From Pyrococcus abyssi GE5 (GTDB lineage: Archaea > Methanobacteriota_B > Thermococci > Thermococcales > Thermococcaceae), in assembly GCF_000195935.2 (NCBI RefSeq), contig NC_000868.1, positions 1,437,742 to 1,461,741 of the forward strand: a stretch of DNA of 24,000 bases. Reading direction: 5' to 3'. Each line of letters opens with the position of its first letter. The stretch's first letter is position 1. Under the pieces are notes generated by a model. That model was given only the letters and a program-made list of their open reading frames with translations, searched no databases and was not told the DNA's origin. The translations under genes were made by a program, and so were the position numbers. Shown piece after piece: positions 5,581 through 23,638 of this stretch.

Positions 5581-5619
5581 AGCATCCAAAGCACAATTTA
5601 ATTAAATTTGGTGAGCAAA

Positions 5620-6066: not shown

Positions 6067-6100
6067 TTCTCCTTCAGAATTATAGTTTTACGTTCCCTAA

Positions 6101-6110
6101 CTTTTATTTT
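6101..6110 (+). terminator. Oligo-T tract (CTTTTATTTT) downstream of the wHTH gene
   Basis: Archaeal terminators are typically T-runs. This one is 35-44 nt after the stop at 6064-6066. Confidence 0.3.
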
Positions 6111-6143
6111 AGAAAAACTGAGCTCCAACTCTATCCCTCTAAT

Positions 6144-6164
6144 ATGGTAATCAGGGGTTACCAT
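6144..6164. promoter_or_regulatory. Palindrome ATGGTAA-N7-TTACCAT upstream of the secreted-protein operon promoter
   Basis: Read directly. 7-bp perfect arms, about 20 bp upstream of the TATA-like CTATATAC. Confidence 0.3.
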
Positions 6165-6183
6165 CATGGAAAGCTGAAACTAC

Positions 6184-6191
6184 CTATATAC
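6184..6191 (+). promoter_or_regulatory. Candidate TATA box (CTATATAC) of the TasA-like operon
   Basis: Preceded by purine-rich GAAACTAC. The expected TSS is near 6215, which argues against the track's TTG start at 6212. Confidence 0.4.
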
Positions 6192-6247
6192 AACTTCAAC
6201 TCTACTCTTGGTTGAGCCCTCACATGGGGGGCTCAGTTGACCAGGAG

Positions 6248-6853
6248 ATGGAAAAAGTGAATAGATATCTACTTGCCATATTTGGCCTTGTGGCCACATT
6301 TGGTCTCGTACTTGGAGTCGGGGCCAATTTTAGGGACTACAACGCAAGCAGGAGCGTCCACTGGGACATAGTTGCCGACGACTCGGAGCTAATTGACTTG
6401 ACTCCGATTCAGAACTACTCGTACATAGATGAAAACGGAAAGCTCGTGATAGACTTTTCACCCGGTAACCCCAACTATCCAGGCTATGGAAACGGGGTAA
6501 GTCCAAGTAGTGAGTACAACTTCGACGAGGTATTCGGAGTTAGTAACCACCTATGGGAGAACCTTCCTATAGTGGTTGAGATAAACTCCACAAACTCACA
6601 CATAGAGCTTTACGGGGCAGATGGAAACGTGTACTCAGCCTATGACGGAAACTTGGCTAGTGCAAGCGACTCAGCAAGGGACTGGGTTTGCTTTGTAGTT
6701 CAGCCCGAAGACATGGTTAAGGTAGGAATGGACCTTTCAGCAAACGGCGACTCACCTGGAGACACCTGGACTGGAAGTTTGAAGATCAGGGCCTACAGGC
6801 TTGGCACCGAGCCTGCTTACCTAGTGGGCAAGTGCGGGCAGGGGCCTATTTGA
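6248..6853 (+). CDS. Secreted TasA/AbpA-like (DUF1102-like) putative fibre subunit, paralog 1
   Basis: The N-terminal hydrophobic segment ends in VGA|NFRDYNASRS. The protein is roughly 60% identical by eye to the next ORF over about 65 residues (DDSELIDLTP..NGKL...YPGYG.G.S..S.Y.F.E.F.VSN.LWEN). Start is ambiguous: ATG 6248, or GTG 6257 (AGGAG RBS 9 nt upstream), which gives MNRYLL parallel to MNKLF of paralog 2. Family assignment is from remembered sequence patterns, not a search. Confidence 0.75.
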   Translation: MEKVNRYLLAIFGLVATFGLVLGVGANFRDYNASRSVHWDIVADDSELIDLTPIQNYSYIDENGKLVIDFSPGNPNYPGYGNGVSPSSEYNFDEVFGVSNHLWENLPIVVEINSTNSHIELYGADGNVYSAYDGNLASASDSARDWVCFVVQPEDMVKVGMDLSANGDSPGDTWTGSLKIRAYRLGTEPAYLVGKCGQGPI

Positions 6854-6867
6854 AGGAGGTATGAGAA

Positions 6868-7395
6868 ATGAATAAGTTGTTTGGAATTGCCCTGTTCCTT
6901 GCAGGGCTTATGTTGGCGGTTGGCGCTGGAGCCAACTTTAGGTACTTCGAGGCAGATAGGGACATGACAGTCGCGATAGTAAGCGACGATAGTGAGTTAA
7001 TAGACTTAACCCCAGTACAGCCTTACGTATACCTAAACAACGGAAAATTGACAGTTGAGATATCGTCCGGACACCCTGAGTATCCAGGATACGGCGATGG
7101 ACTTAGCACAGACAGCCTGTACGTCTTTGAAGAGATGTTTAACGTAAGCAACGAGCTTTGGGAGAACGCCGGCCAGGACTACCCGATATGTGTCACCATA
7201 AAGGCACAATTACCAGTAAAAGTATTCGCCGGAACTTACGACAGCCCGATAGCGGGACCCGACGATACTATCAGCTTTACAGTGTACCACGGCCAGCCCG
7301 TTCCAGTTGGAATGATCTTTGACAACACCGGACTAGACCTAGGAGGGCACCAGATACAGCTAGACATAAGCGCTGTTGCCGGTGAGTGCGAGTGA
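6868..7395 (+). CDS. Secreted TasA/AbpA-like (DUF1102-like) putative fibre subunit, paralog 2
   Basis: GGAGGT RBS 7 nt upstream of the ATG. The signal-like N-terminus MNKLFGIALFLAGLMLAVGAGA|NFRYFEADRDMTVAIVSDDSELIDL resembles the 'GAF..v.AeRtvsv..adD...L.L' N-termini I recall for haloarchaeal TasA-like/DUF1102 proteins and the bacterial SipW-cognate signal class. Confidence 0.8.
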   Translation: MNKLFGIALFLAGLMLAVGAGANFRYFEADRDMTVAIVSDDSELIDLTPVQPYVYLNNGKLTVEISSGHPEYPGYGDGLSTDSLYVFEEMFNVSNELWENAGQDYPICVTIKAQLPVKVFAGTYDSPIAGPDDTISFTVYHGQPVPVGMIFDNTGLDLGGHQIQLDISAVAGECE

Positions 7396-7422
7396 AGGGG
7401 CTTCGGCTCCTTTTCAGCTTTT
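7395..7422 (+). terminator. Hairpin with TTCG loop followed by two T4 tracts, immediately after the paralog 2 stop
   Basis: AAGGGGC-TTCG-GCTCCTT forms a 7-bp stem with one G-U pair, followed by TTTTCAGCTTTT. It sits between the structural genes and the peptidase gene. Confidence 0.4.
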
Positions 7423-7434
7423 AGGTGACGAAAG

Positions 7435-8418
7435 ATGCGGGCCTCCGATTTGATTATCGACCTGGTAATCCTGGGCATAATATTACCCTCGGTTATCGGG
7501 TTCATGATGGGGAGGCCCGTGTTCGTTTCCTATGCCTACTCAGATAGCATGACGCCAACGATAAACAGATGGGACGTTTTCTTCATAAATCCGCTATCAA
7601 AAGGAGACGTTGGAGATATAATCGTCTTTAACCTCTCGGGCAAGTGGACTGTTCATAGGGTATATGCCATAACCGAAAGCGGATACATAACTAAAGGAGA
7701 CAACAACGTTGCAACGGACCAACAAGACAATAAGAATCCACCAATCCCGAGGAATCAGGTGATAGGGAAAGTCATAACGCTTGGGGGTAGACCCATAAAG
7801 ATACCTAAGCTTGGAAAGTACCTACAATCTAAGGATTCCCACTACTTGGCGATAGGATTAGTGGCCTTGGGTGGAGTAATGCTAGGCAGTAATGAGAAGA
7901 GAAGAAGGAAAAGAAGAGGAAAAGTCATTGATACTGGAACCATATACATAGCGCTTTCAGCTTTATTAGCGTTCGGAGTAGTGTTCACGGGTTCAATAGC
8001 GTGGGGTGAGATAAGCATTCCATATACATCAACATTGGCCGGAGGGCAAAGGGAAGGATGGTACCTGCCGGGAAGCGTCGTTGAGAGAAACGTAACCGTT
8101 GAAAATTACGCTAAGTTTCCTATGGTAATGGTCGTTGAAGGGGAAGACATTAGAAGGGTATTCAAGCTGGAAGGTGGAGAGGAAAGAAAGATAGAGATAA
8201 CCATAGACGTTCCAGAAGAGACGAGGGTTTACAATAAGGTCATTAAGGTTTATCCGTATTATCCGATACTTCCACTGAAGCTCATAGACTGGGCCAACTC
8301 AAAAAGCCCATACCTACCCCTGCTCATGGAGGGACTAATGGTATTCCTGGGACTGTTAGCTTTGAAGCCATTACTTGGGGAACCTGAATATATAAACCTT
8401 GGGAGATTTTGGAGTTGA
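7435..8418 (+). CDS. Type I signal peptidase, S26 family, SipW/Sec11 (Ser-His) type, fused to a ~190-aa C-terminal multi-TM plus beta-rich extension
   Basis: Catalytic boxes read directly: YSDSMTPT (Ser box), WTVHRVYAI (His box), TKGDNNVATDQQD (GDNN box). GGTGA RBS at 7424-7428. After residue ~135 come TM2, the basic loop NEKRRRKRRGK, TM3, a ~100-aa non-hydrophobic domain and a final TM. Confidence 0.85.
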   Translation: MRASDLIIDLVILGIILPSVIGFMMGRPVFVSYAYSDSMTPTINRWDVFFINPLSKGDVGDIIVFNLSGKWTVHRVYAITESGYITKGDNNVATDQQDNKNPPIPRNQVIGKVITLGGRPIKIPKLGKYLQSKDSHYLAIGLVALGGVMLGSNEKRRRKRRGKVIDTGTIYIALSALLAFGVVFTGSIAWGEISIPYTSTLAGGQREGWYLPGSVVERNVTVENYAKFPMVMVVEGEDIRRVFKLEGGEERKIEITIDVPEETRVYNKVIKVYPYYPILPLKLIDWANSKSPYLPLLMEGLMVFLGLLALKPLLGEPEYINLGRFWS

Positions 8419-8810
8419 GAAAAATAATTGGAATATTGCTAATTGCAATGGCCCTTCTAACGCTAGAGGTCGGTAGCGTCTCGAACTTTAGGGAGGCCAG
8501 CATGGAGAGGGAGGTTATAGTTGGTTATGGGGACCCTTTCATAGACGTTAGCTGCGAGACCCATGTAATTTGTTGCCATCAGATTGGAGTTATAACGGTG
8601 AAGAACAACCTGGATGAACCCATAGAGGTCTATCTCCTAAGGAAACGTTGCCACTGCACTCAAAGAACTTACATTGGAACTATAGAGCCTGGACATTCAG
8701 AAAACATCTACGTTCTCCCAGGAAATTACACTATACAGGCAGAGTGGAACAGTGGAGGGGCCAAAATAAACGTGACTTGCCCATGCATTAGGAGGGAGCA
8801 TCATGATTAA
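8409..8810 (+). CDS. Small Cys-rich secreted protein with the same N-terminal signature as the two fibre-subunit paralogs
   Basis: N-terminus ...IGILLIAMALLTLEVGSVS|NFREASMEREVIV. Seven Cys (SCETHVICCH, RCHC, CPC) and a C-terminal EHHD. Start is non-ATG (TTG 8409 or 8415) and overlaps the peptidase stop, so it is uncertain. Confidence 0.6.
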   Translation: MELRKIIGILLIAMALLTLEVGSVSNFREASMEREVIVGYGDPFIDVSCETHVICCHQIGVITVKNNLDEPIEVYLLRKRCHCTQRTYIGTIEPGHSENIYVLPGNYTIQAEWNSGGAKINVTCPCIRREHHD

Positions 8811-9720
8811 AGACAATAGATTATCGTACGCGTTCCTGGGACTCTTCGCGCTATTCCTACTACTCTCGCTAGCCTCCTACTCGAGGCCAACCAGCTTCAG
8901 CAGACAGGTGATTGAGGGTAGCATCGTCGAGGAAGGAATGCTAAAGCATGAAGGACACTTAATGAATTCAACAATCTATGGGGAATTCGCGTCCTTAGGT
9001 TATTACCCAACGAAGATCACCGATTACATCGTTGGGGACTACAGGTACAGGGTTACCCCTAAAGAAGATGGAAACTACACGCTGAAAGGCTTGGTCTCTT
9101 ACTACGTCACTAAGGGGAAGGGAAAGGTGTACCTCATAAACGAGACGATGTTCAGCTATAAAGGAAAGTTAACCAACGGAATGTTCGAGGAGAAGTTCAC
9201 GGTGAACCTAAGCAAGATAAACAAGAGAAGGAGCGAGATAAGCGAAGCTTTGAACTTGCCGAGGTTAAGTTACGAGATTAAGGTTGTTGCAGATATTGAT
9301 AGGGAAAACGGAACTTTCAGTCAAGAGATGCCCGTAATCAACGATGCCGCAAGCGGTTTAACGTACATAGACAACACGAACATAAAGAAGAGGAATGCCC
9401 TTACAAAGACCGTTAAAGAAGAGTTGAAGTTCCTTGGCATGAGGGTTTCAACCGCTAGAATAGTGTTCCCGATACTCGCGTTCATCTCGGGGGTTGTAGC
9501 TTTACTAGCTTGGGAGCCCAGGAAGAGGAAGTGGGCCATAGAAGCTAGACCCACGGGAATAGGAGAGAGGGTAATAGTCAACGACATGAAGAGCTTAAAG
9601 AAGATAGCGGGAATAGTTGGGAGTCCAATAATTCACTACGAAACTGACGGAATAAGTGTATACGGAGTTATAGATGGACACGTGCTCTACGAGTACTGGG
9701 AGATCAGGAGCGAGCCTTGA
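8803..9720 (+). CDS. Bitopic/two-TM membrane protein with a ~190-aa external domain and a ~70-aa C-terminal cytoplasmic tail (DUF5305-like?)
   Basis: GGAGGGAG RBS. The ATG overlaps the upstream stop (ATGATTAA). TM at aa ~8-26 and aa ~217-237, followed by the basic stretch EPRKRKW. The family name is only a recollection. Confidence 0.65.
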   Translation: MIKDNRLSYAFLGLFALFLLLSLASYSRPTSFSRQVIEGSIVEEGMLKHEGHLMNSTIYGEFASLGYYPTKITDYIVGDYRYRVTPKEDGNYTLKGLVSYYVTKGKGKVYLINETMFSYKGKLTNGMFEEKFTVNLSKINKRRSEISEALNLPRLSYEIKVVADIDRENGTFSQEMPVINDAASGLTYIDNTNIKKRNALTKTVKEELKFLGMRVSTARIVFPILAFISGVVALLAWEPRKRKWAIEARPTGIGERVIVNDMKSLKKIAGIVGSPIIHYETDGISVYGVIDGHVLYEYWEIRSEP

Positions 9721-11632
9721 TCCAGGCTAATAGGATTATCACTCCCGCTCCTAAGATAACCCCAAAGAGGAACACGAGCAAGTTGGACTTCCCGCTCTTT
9801 ACCTCTATAGTTTTTGTAACAGTTGTTGTCGAGTGCTTTGTCAAGGTTTTCACTTGAGTTTCAGTCTTTACCTCGGTCTTAGTTTCTGTGACCGTTAATG
9901 TTCTAGCGGTTCCATTAGTTAGGGTTATCGTTTTGGTCTCGGTCTTAGTTTTAGTCACCGTAACCGCTTGAGATGAGCCTACGGCCTCGAAGGATATCTT
10001 CGACGAGTACAACTTCACACCATAGGCTTCTAAGTACAAGGGTATCGTGTAGTTCCCCGGGCTCACGACAACTAGTTTAATGCTCTTGACGCTGGCCGGT
10101 ACGGTTACCACTCCAGAGTGGAGTGAGCCCTCGGAAAGTAAGCCCACCCCACTTGGCAAGGCCATCGTGATGTTACCTATTGGAGGATCAACGACGAAGT
10201 TTACCTCGAAGGGCTCCCCTATTCTAGTAACGTTGAGGTAACTAACACCTACGGTTACGTTGATCGCTTTAACGTTCACAATCGGGGAATTTGATGTAAA
10301 GCTAATCAGTGAGAGACCTCCACAAGCCAAGGGATAAGGAACTGGCCCTTCAACGACGAGCCTGCCTACGGTTAAATTACCCGGCTTGAGTGGAACTAAC
10401 GTGAACTTAAGCACTTCACTTTTTCCTGGAGCCAGGGACTTTATGTAAACTTCATCCCTTAAGACCTTGAAGCCATTCCCGGGCTCGAATTTTGCGATCA
10501 TACCTAAGACCTCGCTGGTTCCCTCGTTCTTAACGCTCACATTCACTGTAAAGGGCGTTAGCATCGTAACTTCTCTAGGGGCGCTAACAGTTACGTTCAG
10601 GTAAGCTAGGTATTGGGGCTTCTTTCTCTCGGTGTAGAAGGCTATGAAGTGGGCCTTCTTCCCATTATTATCTTGGGAAGTTTCTAAGAGACCTAACCTT
10701 AAACCATCGTATTCAAGGGCTCCTATGACGTCTTGACTTGCCCTTAAAACTCCCGAATGTAGCTCATTCCCGCAGTTGTTCTCTATACCTATATAAGCCG
10801 CTCCATCGGCTATGCCTTTAACCTTCACGACCAAATCTCCAACCCTAAAGGCCTTGCCCTCGTAGACCCAGAAATCCTTGGAAGGATCGTAGCTTATTGA
10901 AATGTCTAAGGCCCTAAGGTAAACCTCGAGTGAAATTATGGGATCACAAAGGTTCCCTTGCATCTCGCACCTGAAGCCGTTGTACTTAACTATGAAGGGC
11001 CCAACGTAGCCGTAGTCTCCTTCATCTATGTAATAATCCTTGCCCTCGAACTCTATGTTTAGTATGCTCTTTGATTTGTTGTTGACTATGGTCATGTTCA
11101 AACCAGCTAGGGTTAGCTTGTAATCGCCATAGGTTACGTTGCTCAAGAGCTTAAGTTCCCCGCTGAAGACCTTCGGTCTAGGTGTTATAGAAAAGCTGTA
11201 ACCATTCAGCTGGAAGGGCTTCGTATAGCTCTTCCCGCCGGTTCCGTTGGAAACCACGACCTCGTAAGAATCAACCTTAACGTCCTTTACTAGAACCTTG
11301 TAACCTCCAACAACTATGCTCTGGTTCACGAGCAAAGGGGGCAAGGTAACGTTCAAGTAGAACATCGGCTTCTTGCCCAAGAACATCTTAACAAGCTTCA
11401 CCTTAACATTCCCAACATCTTTTTCATCGCCAGGCCTCAGTGAGATGTAGCTGGTTCTGCTAGGGGTGGATACCATTAGCAAGGCTTCACCATCGAAGTT
11501 TCCGTCTTTTGGGATTATCGCGTAGTCACCGTAACTTATCTCCTCCCCTATCCCGAGCCAGCCAGTATAAGTTGAGGCCGAGACCAGTGGAAGGATGAGG
11601 ATCATTACCAGGAGCGCGATGCCCTTCCTCAT
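9704..11632 (-). CDS. Large cell-surface protein: signal peptide, beta-rich ectodomain with CARDB-like module, Thr/Lys/Glu-rich stalk, C-terminal TM anchor; last gene of the fla transcription unit
   Basis: Signal peptide MRKGIALLVMILILPLVSAS. Segment NVTVSAPREVTMLTPFTVNVSVKNEGTSEV...LAPGKSEVLKFTLVPLKPGNLTV fits the CARDB pattern. Stalk TVTKTKTETKTITL...TVTETKTEVKTETQVKT, then LLVFLFGVILGAGVIILLAWIKARS. About 14 N-x-S/T sequons by my count. The ATG lies 3 nt after the flaJ stop, with a GGGGGTG..GGAG RBS. Confidence 0.8.
   Translation of the reverse strand: MRKGIALLVMILILPLVSASTYTGWLGIGEEISYGDYAIIPKDGNFDGEALLMVSTPSRTSYISLRPGDEKDVGNVKVKLVKMFLGKKPMFYLNVTLPPLLVNQSIVVGGYKVLVKDVKVDSYEVVVSNGTGGKSYTKPFQLNGYSFSITPRPKVFSGELKLLSNVTYGDYKLTLAGLNMTIVNNKSKSILNIEFEGKDYYIDEGDYGYVGPFIVKYNGFRCEMQGNLCDPIISLEVYLRALDISISYDPSKDFWVYEGKAFRVGDLVVKVKGIADGAAYIGIENNCGNELHSGVLRASQDVIGALEYDGLRLGLLETSQDNNGKKAHFIAFYTERKKPQYLAYLNVTVSAPREVTMLTPFTVNVSVKNEGTSEVLGMIAKFEPGNGFKVLRDEVYIKSLAPGKSEVLKFTLVPLKPGNLTVGRLVVEGPVPYPLACGGLSLISFTSNSPIVNVKAINVTVGVSYLNVTRIGEPFEVNFVVDPPIGNITMALPSGVGLLSEGSLHSGVVTVPASVKSIKLVVVSPGNYTIPLYLEAYGVKLYSSKISFEAVGSSQAVTVTKTKTETKTITLTNGTARTLTVTETKTEVKTETQVKTLTKHSTTTVTKTIEVKSGKSNLLVFLFGVILGAGVIILLAWIKARS
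9872..9961 (-). repeat. Imperfect 24-nt direct repeat inside the Thr-rich stalk coding region
   Basis: CTCGGTCTTAGTTTCTGTGACCGT (9872-9895) versus CTCGGTCTTAGTTTTAGTCACCGT (9938-9961), 3 mismatches. They encode TVTETKTE and TVTKTKTE. Confidence 0.6.
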
Positions 11633-11635
11633 CTC

Positions 11636-13354
11636 CTACACCCCCAGGAGGTGAAGTATCATCCCACCCTCACCGACGCTCATGAACCTCGCCATGAGGG
11701 TCTGGCCTATGTACATTCCGAAGGCGAAGACCCATAGCAAGATCACGAAGTAGTAAAGTGAGCCAAGCAGGTTCCCTCCGTCAGCTACTTTTATCGCTAA
11801 CGCGGAAAGTAGTGAGTGGACTATCATTATTAGCAGTAACGAGAGGTCAAGTAGTTTCATTCCGCTCGGCGGGATTATGTGGATTATCTCACCTATGTAC
11901 TCCGTTGGAACTTGGAACTTGCTAAAGATATCGTTAATAGCTACAGCGACTTGGAACGATGCTGCTAGAGAGAAGGCGAAAGCTCCAGTTAGACCTAGGA
12001 TTATTCCTATGAAGTTCGAAACGCTCTGTACTCTCTTCCTCCTAAGCCTTACAAGCCTCTCAAAGTTCCTGCTTATCACCTTACCCACGTAATCGGGCTC
12101 GGCACCTAACCTTAGGCTCTCCCTGAATATCTCAGAGAAAATCCCTATCAACCAACTCCCCGTCTCGGCTATGAAGAAGTCCCAAGCTCTCACGGTGTCG
12201 ACCCTAACAGCCAATCTCCTGTAGAGTGACCTTATGTCCTCTGTTAAGGTTCCGAAGTCGTGGGCACTCAGGTACTTCAACACGAGTAAGAGGGAGGCAC
12301 CACTTGATGCCAAGGAAGATGCTAGGCTCCTTATGAAGGCCGGAAAGTTCTCATCCTTCCTGAAGATCATTGCTTCCTCTTTCCTCACAACGTTCCCGGC
12401 GTAGGCCAAAGGGGTTAAGGATAGAGCTATTACGAATGGCGTTGGAAGCTTAAACCTGGGCCTTATCAAGATGAAGTAGAGGAGGAAAACTATGGGGACC
12501 AGCATTGAAGATATTATCAAGGCCCTCTTTATCTTCCTGTGCCTAGGAGTTTCAACCCTCTTCTCGGCCCAGATAGGATCTTCTGGCATCCTGTACTTTA
12601 TAACCATTAGGGATCCTATCTCGGCCACCAAAATTAGGAAAGCCAAGTAAAGTGCAAGCCTACCTATGTTTTGGCCAGTTATTATGGGCCCTATGATCAT
12701 GAAGGCTCCGGCAAAGACTATCGATATGATTATAGACTCGTAAATCTCCTTGAATATGTCGAGATCGTAGAGGGCTCCCTCGTAGAAGGTCTGGTAATCG
12801 TCCATCACCGTTTGCTGCTCCTGGAAGAGGTAATCCTTCAACTCGACACCACTATCTAAAGAGTAAGCGAGCCTATCCAGGAAATCAGCAAAAACCCTGC
12901 TTGGAGTTCTCTTAGCTAGAAACCTAAAAGCCTCTGGCAGAGACCTGTGAAGCTTGTCAACTATCATGTAAACCTTCTTCATCTCCCCAGCTATGGCTCC
13001 AAGCTTAGGGTCACTTGCTAAAACCTTTAGGATGTCGGTTCTACCTATCTCACTCGTAGAGAGAACGGCGAAGTACGTTATGAAGTACGGCAACTTGGAG
13101 TTTATCGAAATTCTCTTTGAATCCGCGGCCAAGTAAGGGTAAGCGGCAACATATATCGCAATTATAATCGGAATCAGGTACATGAAGAAGACCAAGCCCC
13201 TGGGAAGGGGAATCATCCTAGTGAATACGCTGACAACTATGAAAAGAACAAAGGAACCCAAGAGGCCAGGGAGTAGTATTCTCCTCAGGTAGGTCCTCGG
13301 ATCCAGATCTGCCTTCACGAAGATGCTGATCTTCTCCTGAGGCACCTTGATCAC
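11636..13354 (-). CDS. flaJ: Archaellum polytopic membrane platform protein FlaJ/ArlJ
   Basis: 572 aa with multiple TM segments alternating with two cytoplasmic helical domains (T2SS-F/TadC-like architecture). GTG start 3 nt after the flaI stop. Position after flaI is canonical. Confidence 0.9.
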   Translation of the reverse strand: MIKVPQEKISIFVKADLDPRTYLRRILLPGLLGSFVLFIVVSVFTRMIPLPRGLVFFMYLIPIIIAIYVAAYPYLAADSKRISINSKLPYFITYFAVLSTSEIGRTDILKVLASDPKLGAIAGEMKKVYMIVDKLHRSLPEAFRFLAKRTPSRVFADFLDRLAYSLDSGVELKDYLFQEQQTVMDDYQTFYEGALYDLDIFKEIYESIIISIVFAGAFMIIGPIITGQNIGRLALYLAFLILVAEIGSLMVIKYRMPEDPIWAEKRVETPRHRKIKRALIISSMLVPIVFLLYFILIRPRFKLPTPFVIALSLTPLAYAGNVVRKEEAMIFRKDENFPAFIRSLASSLASSGASLLLVLKYLSAHDFGTLTEDIRSLYRRLAVRVDTVRAWDFFIAETGSWLIGIFSEIFRESLRLGAEPDYVGKVISRNFERLVRLRRKRVQSVSNFIGIILGLTGAFAFSLAASFQVAVAINDIFSKFQVPTEYIGEIIHIIPPSGMKLLDLSLLLIMIVHSLLSALAIKVADGGNLLGSLYYFVILLWVFAFGMYIGQTLMARFMSVGEGGMILHLLGV

Positions 13355-13357
13355 CCC

Positions 13358-14971
13358 TTAGATTCTAAAGCTCAAACCTTCGAGACCCCTCTGGTAGAAC
13401 GCCTTGATCTCCCTGTAGACGTCCCAGTAGTTGAATATCTTAAGCTCGACCATCCTCTGGAGTATTCTGGCCCTTAGGAAGAGCTCATCGTATATCGCCT
13501 TAGGATCCTCAAAACCGGCAATCTCGGCTATCTTATTCTCGAGGATGTAAGAGTTGTTCATACCCCTGAAGATGTGCTTGTCGCTAACTGGATCCCACTC
13601 GAAGACATTCCTAGTTGCAACTCCACCGAGCTCCTCGTAGTAACCCTCTATCTCGACGACGTTGATTACCCTTCTAAGGAACTTACCCTTAACGTAAACG
13701 GCCTGCTGGAAGAGGGCTATATTCAAGTTATCTATGAACGTTATCGGAACGTTTATTGGAGAGCCCGTGAAACGCTGGATCATCTTCTTAATGTCACCGG
13801 CGTGGAAGGTTGCCATTACAGGGTGACCCGTCTGCATAGCCTGGAACGCTATGTTACCCTCAGCTCCTCTAATCTCACCGACTATGATGTAGTTAGGTCT
13901 AGATCTTAACGCCGCCTTAAGTAGGTCGAACAGTGTAACACGGCTCTCCTCTGGACCTCTCTCCCTCGTAACGAGTCTCTGCCATGTCGGGTGTGGAACC
14001 TGAACTTCCGGAGTATCTTCAGCGGTAAAGACCTTTGAGCCTGGCTTAATGAACGGGATTATAGCGTTCAAGGTCGTGGTCTTACCAGAGGCAGTCTCAC
14101 CGCAGACGAATATGCTCATTCCGTACTCTATCGCCAACCAGAGGTAAGCTGCTATCTCGGCGCTCATGGTTCCCCAGGCTATCAGCTGGGTTATGCTTAG
14201 TGGCGTTGCAGCGAACTTTCTTATCGTAGCGCTTGGACCCTTGAGCGATACATCCGGAGAGTAGATTATGTTTATACGGGAACCATCTGGAAGAGTTCCA
14301 TCCACTATCGGGTTTCTATCGCTCACGGGCCTCCCTATCCTCTCGGATAGGTTCTTCAGGTAATCGGCCAGCTCTATGTTATCTTTCCACTTGATGTTGG
14401 TCGGCAGGTGCTGGAATATTTTGTGAACTACAGATACGTAGTTGGCACCTATTATGTGGATGTCCTCGAGATATGGATCCCTCGCTATCGGCTCCAAGGG
14501 GCCGATTCCAATTATGTCTCGCTTTATCAAGTACCTAAACTTCTCCATCTCATCCTTGGTTATCGTTAATCCCTTCCTCCCCTTAACAAGGGATAAAACG
14601 GCCTCCTCGAAGAGATTGTCTAGGAATCTCTCGAATTCTTCCTGCTCCTCTGGGATCTCCCTGGTCGGGGCTAGCTCAAGGATTCTATCCTTTATGAGCT
14701 GGTACTTCTCCTCCTCTTCCCTCGTCTCTATCCTGGGCTCTATGACTATGTACTGCGTCTCCGTTTGAGGATCACCGTAGATGTGGATGAATATTGGATC
14801 ACCGACTGGGTAGATTATGTTCGGGTAAGGTATGTCCCTCATATCCGTAGTAAGCTGAACGTGAAACTCGGGGGTCTTACCATACTTACGCCTAAACTCC
14901 TCAACGTACTTCCTAAGGTGAGGATTCCTGCGCATTGCCTCATCAAGTGTCCCTGAAACCGCTTCCGCCAT
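13358..14971 (-). CDS. flaI: Archaellum assembly/motor ATPase FlaI/ArlI (VirB11/type IV secretion NTPase family)
   Basis: Walker A GETASGKTT, Asp/His boxes (VGEIRGAE, GHPVMATFHA), 537 aa. RBS GGTGGTG within the end of flaH. Confidence 0.95.
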   Translation of the reverse strand: MAEAVSGTLDEAMRRNPHLRKYVEEFRRKYGKTPEFHVQLTTDMRDIPYPNIIYPVGDPIFIHIYGDPQTETQYIVIEPRIETREEEEKYQLIKDRILELAPTREIPEEQEEFERFLDNLFEEAVLSLVKGRKGLTITKDEMEKFRYLIKRDIIGIGPLEPIARDPYLEDIHIIGANYVSVVHKIFQHLPTNIKWKDNIELADYLKNLSERIGRPVSDRNPIVDGTLPDGSRINIIYSPDVSLKGPSATIRKFAATPLSITQLIAWGTMSAEIAAYLWLAIEYGMSIFVCGETASGKTTTLNAIIPFIKPGSKVFTAEDTPEVQVPHPTWQRLVTRERGPEESRVTLFDLLKAALRSRPNYIIVGEIRGAEGNIAFQAMQTGHPVMATFHAGDIKKMIQRFTGSPINVPITFIDNLNIALFQQAVYVKGKFLRRVINVVEIEGYYEELGGVATRNVFEWDPVSDKHIFRGMNNSYILENKIAEIAGFEDPKAIYDELFLRARILQRMVELKIFNYWDVYREIKAFYQRGLEGLSFRI

Positions 14972-14972
14972 G

Positions 14973-15671
14973 TCACACCACCGCCGCTATTTCTACTACT
15001 AAACCAACCTTCGGCTCAACTCTAAACGGTATTATCTTCTGGAAAGCTCCCTTGGCATTGTTGTACTTCACTATTGTCGCGGAGTTCTTCAAGTCACCAC
15101 CGAAGACCCTAACGTTGAGCCTAATTAACAGGGTCGAGGCCTCCTCAAGCAGGAACATGACATCTCGCGAGAGCTCCTCAGGGTTAGCGGTCAATATTAT
15201 CACCTTGCCAAGGCTCGACAACTTCTTTATGTACATCAGGAAATTTCTCACGGCCCTAACATCCTGCTCTCGCGAAAGGACGGATGAGAATGAATCTATT
15301 ATAACAACATCCTGATCCCAAAGCCTTGGCTCTCCCAACAATCTGCTCAGGAACTTCCTCTCCTCACTAACACCACTAAGTAAAGGGTAAAGCGATACAA
15401 AGACTAGCTTCTTCCTTATCAGGAAAGGGATAACATCGTAGCTTATGGACATCATCTGCTTTATGTACTCGACCGTTGTGTACTGGCTTGAAACGTAGGA
15501 ACTCGTGTAGCCATTCATGAGGAAACCGTACAGGAGTCTCTGGGAAAGTATTGACTTTCCAGTCCCTCTGTCGCCCTCGATGAGCATTATAGTCCCAGCG
15601 GGAATGCCGCCGCCGAGACGTCTGTGCAGCTCGTCGCTCTTCAGTGTTATCTTCAGTAGCTCCTCGACCAT
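14973..15671 (-). CDS. flaH: RecA/KaiC-like ATP-binding archaellum protein FlaH/ArlH
   Basis: Walker A GDRGTGKS, 232 aa, located between flaG and flaI. GGGGGG RBS. Confidence 0.9.
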   Translation of the reverse strand: MVEELLKITLKSDELHRRLGGGIPAGTIMLIEGDRGTGKSILSQRLLYGFLMNGYTSSYVSSQYTTVEYIKQMMSISYDVIPFLIRKKLVFVSLYPLLSGVSEERKFLSRLLGEPRLWDQDVVIIDSFSSVLSREQDVRAVRNFLMYIKKLSSLGKVIILTANPEELSRDVMFLLEEASTLLIRLNVRVFGGDLKNSATIVKYNNAKGAFQKIIPFRVEPKVGLVVEIAAVV

Positions 15672-15684
15672 GCTAATCCCCCCT

Positions 15685-16158
15685 TCAGATCTTGAAGATT
15701 AGAACCCTCCTCTTTCCGTTCTTGAGGACAACTTGGAGCCTGTGGTAGCCAGCGCTTAGCGCGTTCCCTAGGGTCACTTTTATTACTCCGACCTCTCCGG
15801 GGTTCAGTGAGGTTATTGAATTCCCGTTTACATCCGTGAACGTGAGGTTGGCCGAAGGAATTATGTTGCCATCGATGAATACCTGAACCGAATTAGGGTT
15901 GAAAGAAATAATGTCCTTTCCAACGTTCTTGATGTAAAATGTATAATTGTAAGGCCCCGTTCCACTAACGGGGATATTGTTGGGATCGTTGATTATCGCG
16001 AAGTCAACCCTCAAGCTATCCGCGAGCATTTCGCCCCTGTCCTTCATACTATTAGCGAGATCTGTGGTAACGTATGCCAATGCCCCGGCGACGCTACCGG
16101 CTATGATCACTGCAACTATGAACATTATTAGTTCGCTTGCAGGCCCTCCAGCTGACAT
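15685..16158 (-). CDS. flaG: Archaellum stator-associated protein FlaG/ArlG
   Basis: N-terminal TM ELIMFIVAVIIAGSVAGALAYV followed by a beta-rich domain. The track start at 16179 is GTG. ATG 16158 has GGTGA 4 nt upstream and overlaps the flaF stop (TGATG), so it is preferred. Confidence 0.8.
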   Translation of the reverse strand: MSAGGPASELIMFIVAVIIAGSVAGALAYVTTDLANSMKDRGEMLADSLRVDFAIINDPNNIPVSGTGPYNYTFYIKNVGKDIISFNPNSVQVFIDGNIIPSANLTFTDVNGNSITSLNPGEVGVIKVTLGNALSAGYHRLQVVLKNGKRRVLIFKI

Positions 16159-16625
16159 CAGCTCACCCCCAGTGGGCACTGGATTGAAACCGAGTCAACA
16201 ACATATGCGGTTCCATTGTAATGATAGGCTATGATCGTGATGCAACCGTTATTGAAAGCCAGCGTCAAGTGATTTAAGCTACCACTAGTATCTCCCCCAG
16301 GAACGGTTATCGTATAGCTCGCCCCAGGAATTAGATAGGACACATCCACGGATGAGACGTAAATTCCATTGTGGAGGACATCGATTTTACCCTCAAGGGT
16401 TTGACCTAAGTAAGTGAACGTGACATCAACATGAGTAGCGTTCACATATGAAACCGAGACATTACCAACATCGAAGTGAAGCTGGGAACTACGAAGGGAA
16501 TACCAAAACTCCTTAGCGGCCTGAACCTCAAGGTAACTGTTTTCCCAGGCCACATAGAGAGTCCCTAGACCCACTAAAAAAGAAATTAGGATTATCGCTG
16601 CACTCGCTGAGACGCTGAACCCCAA
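16158..16625 (-). CDS. flaF: Archaellum S-layer-binding stator protein FlaF/ArlF
   Basis: The characteristic N-terminus MGFSVSASAAIILISFLVG followed by a beta-sandwich-like sequence. TTG start with a strong GGAGGGG RBS at 6-nt spacing. Confidence 0.8.
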   Translation of the reverse strand: MGFSVSASAAIILISFLVGLGTLYVAWENSYLEVQAAKEFWYSLRSSQLHFDVGNVSVSYVNATHVDVTFTYLGQTLEGKIDVLHNGIYVSSVDVSYLIPGASYTITVPGGDTSGSLNHLTLAFNNGCITIIAYHYNGTAYVVDSVSIQCPLGVS

Positions 16626-16643
16626 TGGTTACCCCTCCAGGAT

Positions 16644-17903
16644 TTAGACCCCGTAGAACTCATCTAGGGTCTTCTCTAGCATCTTCACCTCCCTTTCTAG
16701 CTTGTCCAAGACGTCCCTCGTGATCCTGAGTCCCCTGAGCCTCTCGATGAAGAGTAAGCTTATTAGGTGATCCTGAACCGTGAGCTTTTCAGCTGGCTTC
16801 CACTCGGGATCCCTGTGGTGTGGCCTCGTTCCCCTGGCGAACCTAAGGAGCTGGTTCAAAACCTTTTCACTTATCCAGCCGATCTCGTAGTAGAACTCGA
16901 GAACCTTCTCGAGATTCTGTATACCGACCCTGTCGATGAGGAAGCCCAGCCACTTCAGCGCTATCATAACGGAGACAACATCTTCTGGAATTTCTTCGAG
17001 CCTTGCCTTCTTTGGTTCTTCCTCGAAGAGGATGCTCGCGATGTCCTCTGGTATCTTCATCTTTTCGGCCATTTCACCCACCTCCTTTTCCTCAACAACT
17101 TCGGGATGAGCTTCCTCAACAACCTCAACAGGTTTTTCCTCCTCGGTAACAACCTCCTCAACGGGCTTCTCCTCTAAAACCTCAACCTCCTCAGGAACAA
17201 CTTCCTCAACTTTGGGCTTTTCCTCTTCAACTTCAACAACTTCTTCAACGGGCTTCTCCTCAATGACCTCTTCAACAACCTCCTCCTCGGGAACGACTTC
17301 TTCAGGCTTCTTGGCTTCCTCCTCCAAGGCCTCAACCTTCTCGGCCAATTCGCTAACTTCTTCGGCGGTAACTTCCTCTCCCTTCTCTATCTTCTCCTCC
17401 AACTCCTCAACTCTCTTCTTGGCCTCCTCAAGCTTCTCGCCGGCTATCTTCTCTTCTAAAGCTTCCACCTTCTCGTGAATTTCTTCAAGCTTCTTCACTA
17501 TCTCTGGCCTCTCCTCGGGCTTCTTCTCAAGCAGCTCCTCGATCTTGCTGACCTTCTCAGTAACTTCAACCGCCTTCTCGGCTATTTCCTCGGCCTTCTT
17601 CTCGTGAACCGCGAACTTCTTCTCCTCAAGGGCCTCAACGAGTCTTGAAAGTTGGGAGCTAAGTTCGCTCAACTTCTTTCCGAGCTCATCGACCCTCTTG
17701 CTTATCTGCTCGTACTTTGCAGCCTGGCTTCCATACGCGTCGAGGACCCTCTTTATTATCTCGTCGAGCTGTTTTGGCGTTAGGGAATCCTTCTTTGCCA
17801 TTAGCTTCTCCTTGAGCTCGTTGATGACAACGCTGGGAACCTTACCCTTGAGCTCTGCAAGCTTTGCGTTTATCTCTGCATCGGTGACATAGCCGACTTC
17901 CAT
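16644..17903 (-). CDS. flaD: Archaellum motor-switch accessory protein FlaD/E (ArlD) with long coiled-coil and acidic linker
   Basis: The C-terminal ~110 aa (EEIPEDVVSVMIALKWLGFLIDRVGIQNLEKVLEFYYEIGWISEKV...) match the FlaD/FlaE domain. The N-terminal part is coiled coil plus an E/V/K/P low-complexity region. Position after flaC. Confidence 0.85.
   Translation of the reverse strand: MEVGYVTDAEINAKLAELKGKVPSVVINELKEKLMAKKDSLTPKQLDEIIKRVLDAYGSQAAKYEQISKRVDELGKKLSELSSQLSRLVEALEEKKFAVHEKKAEEIAEKAVEVTEKVSKIEELLEKKPEERPEIVKKLEEIHEKVEALEEKIAGEKLEEAKKRVEELEEKIEKGEEVTAEEVSELAEKVEALEEEAKKPEEVVPEEEVVEEVIEEKPVEEVVEVEEEKPKVEEVVPEEVEVLEEKPVEEVVTEEEKPVEVVEEAHPEVVEEKEVGEMAEKMKIPEDIASILFEEEPKKARLEEIPEDVVSVMIALKWLGFLIDRVGIQNLEKVLEFYYEIGWISEKVLNQLLRFARGTRPHHRDPEWKPAEKLTVQDHLISLLFIERLRGLRITRDVLDKLEREVKMLEKTLDEFYGV
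17079..17318 (-). repeat. Imperfect tandem coding repeats (EEKPVEEVV-type units) in flaD
   Basis: EEKPVEEVV occurs twice and EEKPVEVV once within aa ~196-275. The DNA shows recurring CCTCAACAACYTC-like units. The antisense Ser-rich ORFs here are artefacts. Confidence 0.7.
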
Positions 17904-17906
17904 GCC

Positions 17907-18389
17907 TCACACCTCCGCGAGGACTTCATAGAGGATTGAATCTATGTCGACACCATATCCAGCGAGCACCTTTATATCGTTCTTTATCTGTGCCAGCTCC
18001 ATCCTTATCTCCTCTATCTGCTTCCTGAGCTCTTGAACTTCACTGCTCAGTGAAGATTCTTGGCTTAGCTGTTCCTTGAAGGGGTTGATCTCCTGGGAGA
18101 CTACTTCGTAGAGCATCATTATGTCCTTGATCGTCTTGTCAAGTCTCTCTATCTCCTCCCTTATCTCCTGGATCTGCTTCTTTATGTTGTCGATGCTTAT
18201 CTTGACCCTGGGAAGATCGTTCTCTATCTCATTGAGCCTCTCCATTATCTGCTCAATCTGCTCGTTCTGCTCCCTTTCCTCAACCCTACTCTCCAGCTCT
18301 TCAACCGTTACTTCCTCGAACGTTGTTCCCTCTCTCTTTTCCTCTTCCTTCTTTTTCTTAAATAGGGAAGATAAGAAGTCGAGGGCCAT
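17907..18389 (-). CDS. flaC: Archaellum accessory coiled-coil protein FlaC/ArlC
   Basis: 160 aa, strongly helical and charged. First gene after the flagellin genes. RBS GGTGAGGG upstream of the ATG. Confidence 0.8.
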   Translation of the reverse strand: MALDFLSSLFKKKKEEEKREGTTFEEVTVEELESRVEEREQNEQIEQIMERLNEIENDLPRVKISIDNIKKQIQEIREEIERLDKTIKDIMMLYEVVSQEINPFKEQLSQESSLSSEVQELRKQIEEIRMELAQIKNDIKVLAGYGVDIDSILYEVLAEV

Positions 18390-18400
18390 CGGCCCTCACC

Positions 18401-19069
18401 TCACTGGAGCTCAATACCCTCACTGGAGTAAGTAGCTGGAGTTATTAAGTCGATAACAGTTCCTGCACCGTGTGGTGGCAGTATCTTACCGACCACCTTT
18501 GTGTTAGGCGGAATTCCCCCGTATTTGTTAAAAGCCAATTTAGTGTTAATTAGCAGTACTGCTAAATCTCCCGAGTTCATTCCCGGTGATGCCTTGTTGG
18601 AAAGCATGCTTTTATCGCTATCAACCACAACTCCCACTCCAAACTTTGTTCCGTTAATATTTTCCCATATGGTTTCATTAAAGACATTAACTGCACCATT
18701 CGTCCAGTCTGCAACGGTATCCTCTCCACCAAAGGTAAATATGACCATCGTTGACTTTACTGTGAGTATTATCCTTGTCTGGTTGAGGTTTATGGGTTCA
18801 CTTCCAGCGTTGGGAGCTATGTATATGGCGAGTTTGGTAATATTGCTCTGAATGGTGGTATTGCCAGTAGTATTCTTAGGGGCATAGCCCCAGATTGAGA
18901 TTATTCTGAGACCACTTGAAACATCCCTTGTAGTCTCTAGGCCTACAGACATTGCCCTTTGCTGGAGATATCCAGAAGTGCTAATGAGCACTCCCGCTGC
19001 TACTGCCGCTACTAAAACCATTGCGATGAAAACTATCAACGTGCCAATGCCGATCGCACCTCTCCTCAT
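18401..19069 (-). CDS. flaB: Archaellin (flagellin) FlaB/ArlB, copy 3
   Basis: Class III signal peptide MRRG|[25 protein letters not shown], with several N-x-S/T sequons. The track start at 19078 is GTG. ATG 19069 is preceded by GGTGA at 5 nt. Confidence 0.9.
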
Positions 19070-19079
19070 TGCTCTCACC

Positions 19080-19739
19080 TCACTGGAGTACCATCACCCG
19101 GTAGTTATATGTTGAGGGTGTTGTGAAGTCTATAACACCTGCAGCCCCAACTTCGGGAATTACCTTCCCAACTATCCTAGTACCAGGACCGATTCCTCTA
19201 CGGTTATCCTCTGTTTCAAAAACTGTTGTCCTGAGGAGTAGTGCCACGGTATCTCCCCATTCTAAGTTTGGATAATCTTTGTCCATTTTGTTCCCACTGT
19301 CGTTAATGACCGCTATTCCGAAGGTTGTATCGGTAATGTTGTTCCATATCGTAACGATAGAATCATTGAACAAGTCGCTTATCTGTTTGTCATAAAGCAA
19401 TCCCTTGCTATAATTATAGACAACGAGTTTCTTGCCATCGCTGAGAACAATTTTCACGTTACTGAGGGATATCCCCCCACTCCCTGCGTTAGGTGAGACG
19501 AATATTGCCATCTTGGTTATTGTGCCATTACTAGGGACAGAGGAGTTTACGTAACCATAGATGTTGATGATCTTTATCCCACTGGAAACCTCTTGGGTTG
19601 TCTGCATGCCTGTAGCCTGTGCCTTCTGTTGAAGATAACCAGCTGTTCCAATGATAACTCCCGCCGCTACTGCCGCTACTAGAACCATTGCAATGAAGAC
19701 AATGAGCGTTCCTATGCCTATTGCACCCTTTCTGTGCAT
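19080..19739 (-). CDS. flaB: Archaellin (flagellin) FlaB/ArlB, copy 2
   Basis: MHRKG|[25 protein letters not shown]. The track start at 19754 is TTG. ATG 19739 follows GGTGA at 4 nt. Confidence 0.9.
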
Positions 19740-19767
19740 AGTATCACCCCTCAAAGAAATTAATGTT

Positions 19768-19790
19768 AAAATCGAAAGAGAGGTAAAAAG
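19768..19790 (-). terminator. T-runs (CCTTTTTACC ... GATTTTAAC on the minus strand) in the unusually long gap after the first flaB
   Basis: Read directly. It lies within the largest intergenic gap of the flaB-to-surface-protein gene series, 52 nt by track coordinates or 67 nt using my preferred flaB copy 2 start. The other gaps are 1-18 nt or overlaps. Confidence 0.35.
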
Positions 19791-19806
19791 GCAAGGTTAA
19801 ACGCTG

Positions 19807-20304
19807 TCAGCTACTGGGAACACTATCAAGATCTTTGGTTACAGTGAATGGAGTTGGTGAACCAACGTTAGGAACGATTTCTCCCCGAGCGACGGTCCAA
19901 CCCTCACTCATATTGAATGTTATGAGAATTGTTGATCCTGGTTGTACAATGTCGCCGTTAATCTCTCCTACCAGAGGTTTTGCAGAGAAATTTGTGGTGT
20001 TAGCAGTACTACCATATGTGAGTTGCTTTCCGTTTACGATTATAACTGTCCTGCTAATGTCGACGGGATAGCTCCCCGTTGGTAGGGTTACTAGAAGGTT
20101 TATCGTATTGGTGCCTGTTACATAGGCGTCCTTGAGAATAAAACCAGTCGAAACTTGCCTGGTCTGCTCCTTACCTACTGTTGAAGCCCTAGTCTGGAGG
20201 AAGCCGCTCGTGTTTATGAGAACTGCTGCAGCTACTGCAGCCACTAACACCATGGCAATAAACACTATTAGGGTACCAATACCAATCGCACCTCTTCTTG
20301 CCAT
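19807..20304 (-). CDS. flaB: Archaellin (flagellin) FlaB/ArlB, copy 1 (short form, promoter-proximal)
   Basis: MARRG|[25 protein letters not shown]. Only ~165 aa, with a C-terminal domain unlike copies 2 and 3. The track start at 20334 is TTG. ATG 20304 has GGGGGTG 9 nt upstream. Confidence 0.85.
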
Positions 20305-20342
20305 TTGCCATGCACCCCCTTGGAGGTTTTTCAATATTTTCT

Positions 20343-20370
20343 AAAAATGGCTGGATATAAAACCATTTTT
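20343..20370 (-). promoter_or_regulatory. Candidate flaB promoter: TATA box TTTTATAT (20355-20362, minus) bracketed by the inverted repeat AAAAATGG / CCATTTTT
   Basis: Read directly. The TATA box is ~50 nt upstream of ATG 20304. The 8-bp arms (20343-20350 and 20363-20370) flank a 12-bp spacer containing it. Confidence 0.4.
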
Positions 20371-20400
20371 TGTGTGTGGAAGTGCCTGTAAAAGTTGAAC

Positions 20401-20424
20401 TACATATGTAGGTACATATGTAGG
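20401..20424. promoter_or_regulatory. Tandem repeat of the 10-bp palindrome TACATATGTA (TACATATGTAGG x2), giving four TACATA hexamers; candidate EarA-type activator site
   Basis: Read directly. About 40 bp upstream of the candidate flaB TATA box. TACATA is the hexamer I recall as the EarA binding consensus upstream of the Methanococcus maripaludis fla promoter. Confidence 0.55.
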
Positions 20425-20434
20425 TTATCGACAT

Positions 20435-21422: not shown

Positions 21423-21749
21423 TCACATGAATTTTCTGTAGTAGGCTTGGTAATCCCTAAGCATCTCAACTACCTTTTTCCCATACTCGGTCAGCCTGTA
21501 GTATTTGAACCCGTTGTTCCTTATCTCCTCTACGAGGCCAAGGTAAACAAGGGAGCTTTCACCATTGTAACGGTTCCCCAAACCAACCAACGCACCCCTC
21601 ACGTTGGAAGGATCCGACCCAACAACCCTCGCTATCTCGCTAAGGTAAGTGGCAGAAGGGTATATCTCGTAGAGGTACTGGAGGATTCTCCTCCGAAGCT
21701 CGCTCCTGTGTAGTGATCGCAAGACGTGAGGGTCAATCACTGGTGGCAC
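21423..21749 (-). CDS. Small winged-helix DNA-binding protein, candidate archaellum regulator (EarA-like)
   Basis: 108 aa. The wHTH pattern is RRRILQYLYEIYPSATYLSEIARVVGSDPSNVRGALVGL...LVEEIRNNGFKYYRLTEYGKKV. GTG start with GGTGA 6 nt upstream. First gene of the fla region. The EarA assignment is inference. Confidence 0.7.
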   Translation of the reverse strand: MPPVIDPHVLRSLHRSELRRRILQYLYEIYPSATYLSEIARVVGSDPSNVRGALVGLGNRYNGESSLVYLGLVEEIRNNGFKYYRLTEYGKKVVEMLRDYQAYYRKFM

Positions 21750-21775
21750 TGGGCATCACCTTTGGACCTTTTTTA

Positions 21776-21810
21776 CCCCTATATAATAATGCATGCAAAA
21801 TTAATAAAGG
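21776..21810. promoter_or_regulatory. Divergent promoter region with back-to-back TATA-like boxes
   Basis: TATATAAT (21780-21787, plus) and TTTATTAA (21801-21808, minus) flank a GCATGC palindrome. The assignment of boxes to genes is unverified. Confidence 0.3.
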
Positions 21811-21890
21811 TTTCGTTGAAAGCTTGGGAAATATCCAATTCAAGAAACCTTAAATACATGGGCGTAGTTGAATTTTTAAGGGAGATCGGA

Positions 21891-23638
<1,748 letters not shown>

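Follow-up and report, generated by a model that had tools for sequence, protein, structure and literature searches.

How does the archaellum cluster of Pyrococcus abyssi GE5 end: with arlJ (flaJ), which encodes the platform protein, or with the gene of a 642-amino-acid (aa) surface protein that begins directly behind it? The question is raised by a stretch of 24,000 nucleotides (nt) of contig NC_000868.1 (assembly GCF_000195935.2, positions 1,437,742 to 1,461,741), which is the window analysed here and whose own numbering is used unless another locus is named. To our knowledge, archaellum clusters (arl or fla) are thought to be fully catalogued, with archaellins plus ArlC-J, or ArlX, and two questions are open in Euryarchaeota: what holds the motor in the envelope, and in what way the filament passes through the surface layer (S-layer). 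We report that the Arl1-type archaellum cluster of Thermococcaceae has the 642-aa gene as its eleventh and last member. Judging from sequence and genomic context, the product of this gene is probably an accessory of the archaellum that belongs to the cell envelope, is specific to this lineage, and is not essential.

The features at the junction are the following, where the upstream gene is identified by the NCBIfam ArlJ model at 770.6 bits against a cut-off of 550:

9704..11632, minus strand: predicted surface glycoprotein gene, 642 aa, ATG start (open reading frame (ORF) and translation; orthologue of PF0329 and TK0050; last gene of the arl cluster)
11639..11645, minus strand: Shine-Dalgarno sequence GGGGGTG (from the sequence; pairs with the 16S 3' end, GATCACCTCCT)
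11636..13354, minus strand: arlJ/flaJ, archaellum platform protein, immediately upstream (NCBIfam NF004704)

The arlJ stop codon TAG (11636-11638) is followed by GAG and then by the ATG of the 642-aa gene, which leaves a gap of 3 nt, the same spacing as in the flaC/flaD and flaI/flaJ gaps of the same cluster. The Shine-Dalgarno sequence lies within the last arlJ codons, 6 nt 5' of the ATG, and is complementary to the 16S 3' end of the same genome, one G.U pair included; comparable sequences also precede flaC, flaD, flaH, and flaI. The preliminary description of this DNA, which placed the ATG 3 nt after the flaJ stop with a ribosome-binding site of its own, is therefore borne out. Along the sense strand, no T run of at least five was found from 12890, inside arlJ, to below 9000, past the end of the 642-aa gene, whereas T runs of that type do come after the archaellin genes. 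The final 150 nt of arlJ contain no TATA-like box, and a manual scan for AT-rich promoters gave weak candidates only, ~160-200 nt inside arlJ. At its other end, the gene overlaps a convergent DUF5305 gene tail-to-tail by 17 nt (9704-9720).

To see how constant this arrangement is, we turned to relatives. Full-length orthologues of the same architecture and position are present in P. furiosus (PF0329, PFDSM3638_01600; 39% identity, also of the same length) and in T. kodakarensis (TK0050, BAD84239.1, 44441-46435; ~27% identity), both annotated as hypothetical. A HMMER search against 1.84 billion representative proteins returned only 24 relatives, nearly all of ~640 aa. Full-length homologues are limited to Thermococcaceae, where they occur in six of six genera, and outside this family we found only CARDB domain matches inside much larger proteins. 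Other searches covered less: a word-indexed homologue search with a 21-sequence alignment gave only nine Pyrococcus proteins, all of which had been found before, its filter probably saturated by Thr-rich words, a query with the Thermococcus ectodomain only added ten sequences, and a related-locus search with a second alignment gave three Thermococcus loci only.

Synteny was examined in 97 Thermococcaceae genomes, 80 with arlJ and 17 without. In 69 of the 80 arlJ-bearing genomes, across six of six genera, a homologue is the next gene 3' of arlJ, encoded on the same strand, with 6-180 nt between the ends of both matches. Whether a homologue always follows flaJ in Thermococcales had been left to be seen in the preliminary description; within this family the answer is mostly, but not in all genomes. 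No full-length copy away from arlJ was found in the scan of the 97 genomes, and none of the 17 arlJ-less genomes has a full-length homologue, the only exception being a fragment on a short contig whose assembly is 75% complete. What lies on the downstream side differs between loci: eight Pyrococcus loci have a convergent DUF5305 gene there, one Thermococcus group has pcm (protein-L-isoaspartate methyltransferase) in the same direction, and elsewhere other genes follow. Because of this variation, the constant genomic partner is arlJ and not the DUF1102/SipW locus to which the DUF5305 gene belongs. The tree of ArlJ from loci L001-L037 also shows that ArlJ from genomes placed by taxonomy in one genus (g3) forms two clades with a deep split of ~0.8 changes per site between them. 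This suggests two old versions of the arl cluster, both with the surface-protein gene, whose link to arlJ spans the two clades.

Published expression data from relatives bear on whether the gene is read together with the motor genes. According to the T. kodakarensis primary transcriptome map, TK0050 overlaps TK0049 (flaJ) by 4 nt and has no primary transcription start site (TSS), only two internal ones. The read counts of TK0050 track those of TK0048/49 over five conditions, and in two T. kodakarensis histone-variant strains TK0050, with log2 fold changes of -6.5 and -5.4, is listed amid TK0047-49 and the che genes. In P. furiosus, PF0329 starts 5 nt after flaJ, an in-silico operon table puts it in one unit with the genes from flaJ to flaB0, and the long-read study of Gruenberger 2023 describes a cluster that includes 'arlJ and a hypothetical gene', with no enriched internal primary 5' ends. 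The PAB/PH and new-style locus tags of the P. abyssi gene gave nothing in the searched literature.

What kind of protein is encoded? The preliminary description had claimed a signal peptide, a beta-rich ectodomain with a CARDB-like module, about 14 N-glycosylation sequons, a TVTKTKTE stalk, and a C-terminal transmembrane anchor, and all of these are present, the CARDB-like module marginally so. The parts and their coding coordinates are listed here, with pLDDT denoting the predicted local distance difference test of the structural model and Ig-like meaning immunoglobulin-like:

11573..11632, minus strand: predicted Sec-type signal peptide, residues 1-20, MRKGIALLVMILILPLVSAS (alignment; model helix 2-12)
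10613..11572, minus strand: N-terminal all-beta module, residues 21-340, with the invariant N285-x-C287 (AlphaFold2; no family match)
10298..10612, minus strand: Ig-like domain 1, CARDB-like, residues 341-445, ending in the invariant P-Y-x-L-A-C-G-G (432-439) (PF07705; invariant columns)
9974..10297, minus strand: Ig-like domain 2, residues 446-553 (beta-sandwich strands, pLDDT 84-89)
9785..9973, minus strand: disordered Thr/Lys/Glu/Val-rich stalk, residues 554-616 (pLDDT 27-45)
9704..9784, minus strand: C-terminal transmembrane helix, residues 617-641, with a basic tail of 3-4 residues and the stop codon (helix in the model)

The AlphaFold2 model of the whole protein, built with 17 relatives, has a mean pLDDT of 81.5. 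Residues 2-12 (the signal peptide) and 617-641 (the transmembrane anchor) are helical in it, residues 20-552 are all-beta, and the stretch from 554 to 615 (the TVTKTKTE... stalk) is disordered. Modelled alone, residues 21-340 reach a pLDDT of 92 and a predicted template modelling score (pTM) of 0.83. This N-terminal module has no match in Pfam or NCBIfam, its best matches among PDB and BFVD structures have template modelling scores (TM-scores) of at most 0.16, and a profile search of PDB sequences gave nothing below an E-value of 0.1. The N-terminal ~320 residues appear, from the model, to form a confidently predicted fold without a solved relative. We rejected beta-propeller matches to this module (TM-scores of at most 0.16, root-mean-square deviation above 20 Å), as well as whole-model matches to SorCS2, a sialidase, an integrin, alpha-2-macroglobulin, and a transglutaminase, which are of the generic multi-Ig kind with TM-scores of at most 0.21 and were regarded as domain-level noise.

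The Ig-like domains were assigned with the help of the orthologues. Residues 348-425 match CARDB (PF07705) with 23.8 bits against a gathering threshold of 22.7 (E-value 5e-5), a marginal match that covers ~80 of the 642 residues, and the orthologues score 26-37 bits for the same family. In the orthologues, Ig-like domain 1 also matches Transglut_C, TRAPPC13_C, and NEW3, and Ig-like domain 2 gives sub-threshold N_BRCA1_IG matches and one CARDB match above threshold. The C-terminal part of the ectodomain is thus a pair of Ig-like domains of the CARDB/NEW3/transglutaminase-C kind. The N-x-S/T sequons number exactly 14, whereas shuffled ectodomains contain 4.8 ± 1.9 and none of 2000 shuffles reaches 14. 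A signal peptide pattern of K/R, a hydrophobic stretch, and A-S-[ST] is found in 30 of 30 homologues, and cleavage (..VSA|S..GW) would fall before a conserved S/T-[FY]-x-G-W.

Comparison with families of known envelope proteins agrees with the earlier statement that this is not a known Fla/Arl component. At an E-value of 0.1 or below, the 642-aa protein has no NCBIfam match to any family, those of Arl/Fla (ArlA-J, ArlX) included, and Pfam gives only CARDB, TRAPPC13_C, and DUF5305, though its neighbours match ArlJ, ArlH, ArlG, and the archaellins. There is no match to the class III signal peptide model TIGR02537, whereas the three archaellins of the cluster match it, and the mature N-terminus is polar (STYTGW) and beta, unlike that of an archaellin or type IV pilin-like protein. 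Neither an NCBIfam match to archaeosortase signals (PGF-CTERM and relatives) nor a PGF/PEF motif was found; the conserved C-terminal residues sit within the transmembrane helix and at its cytoplasmic end, unlike those of a sorting signal. The suggestion that the protein is of S-layer type found no support. In the Pfam scan it has no match to S_layer_N (PF05123), and the S-layer protein of P. abyssi (PF05123, 156 bits) is encoded elsewhere (710183-711265) and has neither stalk nor transmembrane anchor; by sequence, the 642-aa protein is neither an S-layer paralogue nor S-layer-like.

Which parts of the protein are held constant? Across 21 aligned homologues, the invariant residues include N285-x-C287, P-Y-x-L-A-C-G-G (432-439), and, in the transmembrane helix, G628 and A636-W637; the two invariant cysteines (C287 and C437) may form a disulfide. 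The transmembrane helix is the best-conserved segment, with a mean pairwise identity of 0.43 against ~0.30 elsewhere, and the stalk, made of low-complexity T-x-T repeats in all homologues, is the least conserved (0.26). The conserved residues of the helix, G624-x3-G628-x3-I632-x3-A636-W637-x2-A640, include positions i, i+4, i+8, i+12, and i+16 (G624, G628, I632, A636, A640) and so line one helix face, which suggests that the helix packs against another helix. Among close relatives, the ratio of nonsynonymous to synonymous substitution rates is 0.08-0.23, implying that the gene is maintained by selection. A search of the P. abyssi genome for paralogues of the ectodomain or the transmembrane helix found none; the matches that we rejected were to the low-complexity stalk only, together with a 9-residue likeness to the transmembrane segment of the neighbouring DUF5305 protein, which we judged to be due to chance.

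These observations can be combined into a model of an envelope accessory that stands outside the core motor. Read-through from the arl promoter would provide the transcript, and the gene's own Shine-Dalgarno sequence would serve for its translation. The product would then be exported by Sec, N-glycosylated, and tethered to the membrane through the C-terminal helix, its ectodomain lying in the pseudo-periplasm. The conserved small-residue face of the helix (GxxxG...AW..A) could dock on itself or on a membrane-embedded partner at the base of the archaellum (for example ArlJ, or ArlF/ArlG with their N-terminal helices), and the protein may help to hold the rotating filament in the envelope or assist its passage through it. 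The predicted cytoplasmic tail has only 3-4 residues, and any contact with the machine would therefore have to be made within or outside the membrane. By arithmetic only, the stalk would measure ~20 nm if fully extended and, together with five beta domains, could span much of a pseudo-periplasm of ~34 nm. That width comes from a cryo-electron tomography (cryo-ET) study of P. furiosus, which left membrane-proximal periplasmic densities without assignment, found S-layer gaps of at most 3.5 nm against a filament of 11 nm, and stated as open how the S-layer opens. The protein is a candidate, of modest probability, for these densities or for the opening of the S-layer.

A more specific version would make the protein a structural extramembrane part of the archaellum, perhaps a ring or collar in which stalks carry the glycosylated beta-domains. 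Docked via the GxxxG face to ArlJ or ArlF/G, it would anchor the stator to the envelope or replace S-layer subunits where the filament crosses. We regard this ring or collar as possible but tentative, clearly less probable than the accessory role in general. If it were true, it would account for the membrane-proximal densities in the P. furiosus tomograms and would bear on local S-layer opening.

The strongest of the other explanations, though an unlikely one in our view, is that the product is an adhesin or surface-contact protein which is co-regulated with motility and does not touch the machine, its glycosylated and stalked beta-domains binding surfaces or cells. Ig-like/CARDB domains with a flexible stalk and a C-terminal anchor are typical of adhesins, and one study (PMC4263178) reports that P. 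furiosus archaella mediate adhesion. The ectodomain evolves fast as well, with 27-30% identity between genera against 54-74% for ArlJ, and the gene is dispensable in some lineages. However, a free-standing adhesin would have no reason to stay behind arlJ in six genera, nor would its transmembrane helix need to be the best-conserved segment, and neither the profile nor the fold searches found a known adhesin domain or lectin fold.

Several observations weigh against an archaellum role of the gene, most directly against an essential one. Eleven arlJ-bearing Thermococcus genomes lack it. In seven gene-less loci with an intact arlJ (L031-L037, from genomes G018, G020, G029, G032, G070, G073, and G041), arlJ is followed by pcm and no remnant is left; an eighth gene-less locus that we examined (G019) holds a broken arlJ fragment only. 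On the ArlJ tree, the gene-less genomes occupy two separate positions: six of them, T. gammatolerans (G018) included, form one clade, the other position is that of a sister of T. kodakarensis, and 200 of 200 bootstrap trees need two changes. There were thus at least two losses of the surface-protein gene in which the arl cluster was retained, and because these losses are clean and leave the cluster intact, the gene cannot be indispensable. On the motility of T. gammatolerans, the searched literature offered nothing usable. There is also a distant full-length paralogue in one genus that is unlinked to arlJ and occurs in an arlJ-less genome too:

L044 2462-4342, plus strand, and L045 2385-4280, plus strand: paralogue of the arlJ-linked protein, between a nitrilase-like gene and a metallophosphoesterase gene

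The paralogue is ~630 aa long, is related to the arlJ-linked protein with an hhalign probability of 99% at 18% identity, and has the same overall fold profile without PYxLACGG and the conserved transmembrane face. Furthermore, adjacency to arlJ makes co-loss with arlJ uninformative, and all genomes come from one family, so that the 69 cases are not independent. In the searched literature, no experiment ties any orthologue to motility, and no mutant, function, or family model is reported. Finally, reverse-transcription PCR (RT-PCR) in P. furiosus found PF0329 in no cotranscript, and the authors left it out of the operon. In the same experiment flaJ was seen only as a single-gene transcript and in no cotranscript either; because of this, the negative result may reflect low sensitivity at a weakly expressed 3' end, but it is still contrary evidence. 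Co-transcription with the motor genes, called almost certain in the preliminary description, is consequently less firm than claimed: T. kodakarensis speaks for it, where TK0050 has no primary TSS and falls with the fla and che genes, and the P. furiosus RT-PCR speaks against it.

The RT-PCR result, the two losses without loss of arl, the paralogue elsewhere, and the descent of all cases from a single family would also fit an unrelated surface protein that rides at the 3' end of the arl transcript, kept there by undisturbed ancestral synteny without any functional link. We consider this somewhat less likely again than the adhesin, since the gene further downstream was swapped several times while the junction with arlJ stayed tight (6-180 nt), since T. 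kodakarensis co-regulates TK0050 with its fla and che genes, and since no relocated copy was ever found, either in the genomes of the family or in the wider search. That the gene instead works as a member of the convergent DUF1102/SipW-like peptidase/DUF5305 locus (5608-9720, plus strand) is very improbable: the tail-to-tail overlap, the same neighbour in eight Pyrococcus loci and P. furiosus, and a weak DUF5305 (PF17231) match on residues 557-638 (13.5 bits, E-value 0.048) would favour it, but in Thermococcus and other genera the gene stays behind arlJ without that locus, so that synteny contradicts it, and the match is far below its cut-off of 29 and involves only the low-complexity stalk and the transmembrane helix. 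Having weighed these explanations, we prefer a non-essential archaellum accessory of the envelope.

The convergent locus itself has six genes. Their products are a DUF7344 protein of the winged helix-turn-helix (wHTH) type that has transmembrane helices, a pair of DUF1102 proteins, a SipW-like signal peptidase I that is extended at length on its C-terminal side, a small protein rich in Cys, and a DUF5305 membrane protein. At least its last gene, DUF5305, adjoins the 642-aa gene in eight Pyrococcus loci and does not do so in the Thermococcus loci; P. furiosus has PF0326-PF0328 at the matching place. The window holds a second tail-to-tail overlap, of 13 nt (22841-22853), between 21726..22853 (plus strand) and 22841..23596 (minus strand).

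On the minus strand, from 21749 to 9704, the order is a small wHTH-like ORF, an S-adenosylmethionine (SAM) methyltransferase gene, three archaellin genes, arlC, arlD, the rest of arl, and the 642-aa gene, where the part upstream of arlJ is as follows:

13358..20334, minus strand: arlI, arlH, arlG, arlF, arlD, arlC, and three archaellin genes (profiles and position)

These assignments are supported by a T2SSE match and by FlaH/ArlH, ArlG, and archaellin matches above the NCBIfam cut-offs; ArlF is the best match but below its NCBIfam cut-off, and arlC and arlD were assigned from position. Within the cluster, junction gaps lie between -22 and 52 nt. Upstream of the first archaellin gene (20400-20425 and 20355-20373, minus strand), two tandem copies of ACCTACATATGT are followed by AAAAAATGG and TTTTATAT. 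As far as the sequence tells, this layout fits that described for Thermococcales, in which the EarA recognition motif A(C/G)(C/G)TACA(T/C) accompanies a BRE/TATA promoter (PMC10665913); the surface-protein gene is not listed in the supplements of the EarA paper. The TTG start listed for the first archaellin ORF (19807-20334, minus strand) is probably too far 5', with the conserved archaellin N-terminus appearing ten codons later.

With respect to what was known, the gene had been annotated and its position in P. furiosus mentioned in two papers. Four points are new as far as the searched literature shows: that the gene was lost twice independently, that one face of the helix is conserved, that the N-terminal part is confidently modelled as a fold without a solved relative, and that an unlinked paralogue exists. 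A family-wide gene for a putatively envelope-spanning glycoprotein behind arlJ offers a concrete candidate for the outside part of the machine, and it had been set aside on one RT-PCR result. Gene-deletion systems exist for T. kodakarensis and P. furiosus, which makes the candidate genetically tractable, and the gene-less Thermococcus genomes, in which pcm follows arlJ, are natural knock-outs for comparison. Even if the product is only a co-regulated surface protein, the gene would be a useful marker of the motility regulon.

How does the protein compare with known systems? From PF0329 and TK0050, which share its length, architecture, and position, there is no substantive difference, and the P. 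abyssi gene is their counterpart. ArlF and ArlG (FlaF/FlaG), which a review calls stator elements of the archaellum, resemble it in three ways: their genes are in the arl cluster, they are beta-sandwich proteins outside the cytoplasm, and a single transmembrane helix anchors them. However, they have ~150 aa and an N-terminal anchor, whereas the 642-aa protein is four times larger, is anchored at its C-terminus via a long stalk, and is dispensable in some species; both are also encoded in the P. abyssi cluster and bear no sequence relation to it. The SlaB-type S-layer stalk proteins of Sulfolobales consist of a signal peptide, beta domains, an extended stalk, and a C-terminal transmembrane anchor, a layout that by analogy could allow the P. 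abyssi protein to span the pseudo-periplasm. Their stalk is a coiled coil, whereas that of P. abyssi is disordered and Thr-rich, and the P. abyssi gene is tied to arlJ rather than to an S-layer gene; neither the fold search nor the profile search of PDB sequences gave a match to SlaB-type proteins.

Closest in part are the CARDB/NEW3 membrane proteins of Thermococcales (COG1470-like, encoded beside ABC-type genes), which share the signal peptide with the first small beta domain (~80 columns), the Ig-like domains, and the C-terminal transmembrane helix. The first ~80 residues resemble the N-termini of such proteins with an hhalign probability of 95%. Examples are the NEW3/CARDB/CarboxypepD_reg membrane proteins of 650-710 aa at T. 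kodakarensis L042 (1502-3448, minus strand) and L043 (1705-3831, plus strand), which lie beside two genes of ~310-350 aa and whose signal peptide and first small beta domain are similar to the N-terminus of the arlJ-linked protein, pointing to an N-terminal module common to Thermococcales surface proteins. In contrast, the central 250 residues, PYxLACGG, and the transmembrane motif are unique to the arlJ-linked family, and its genomic context differs from that of these proteins.

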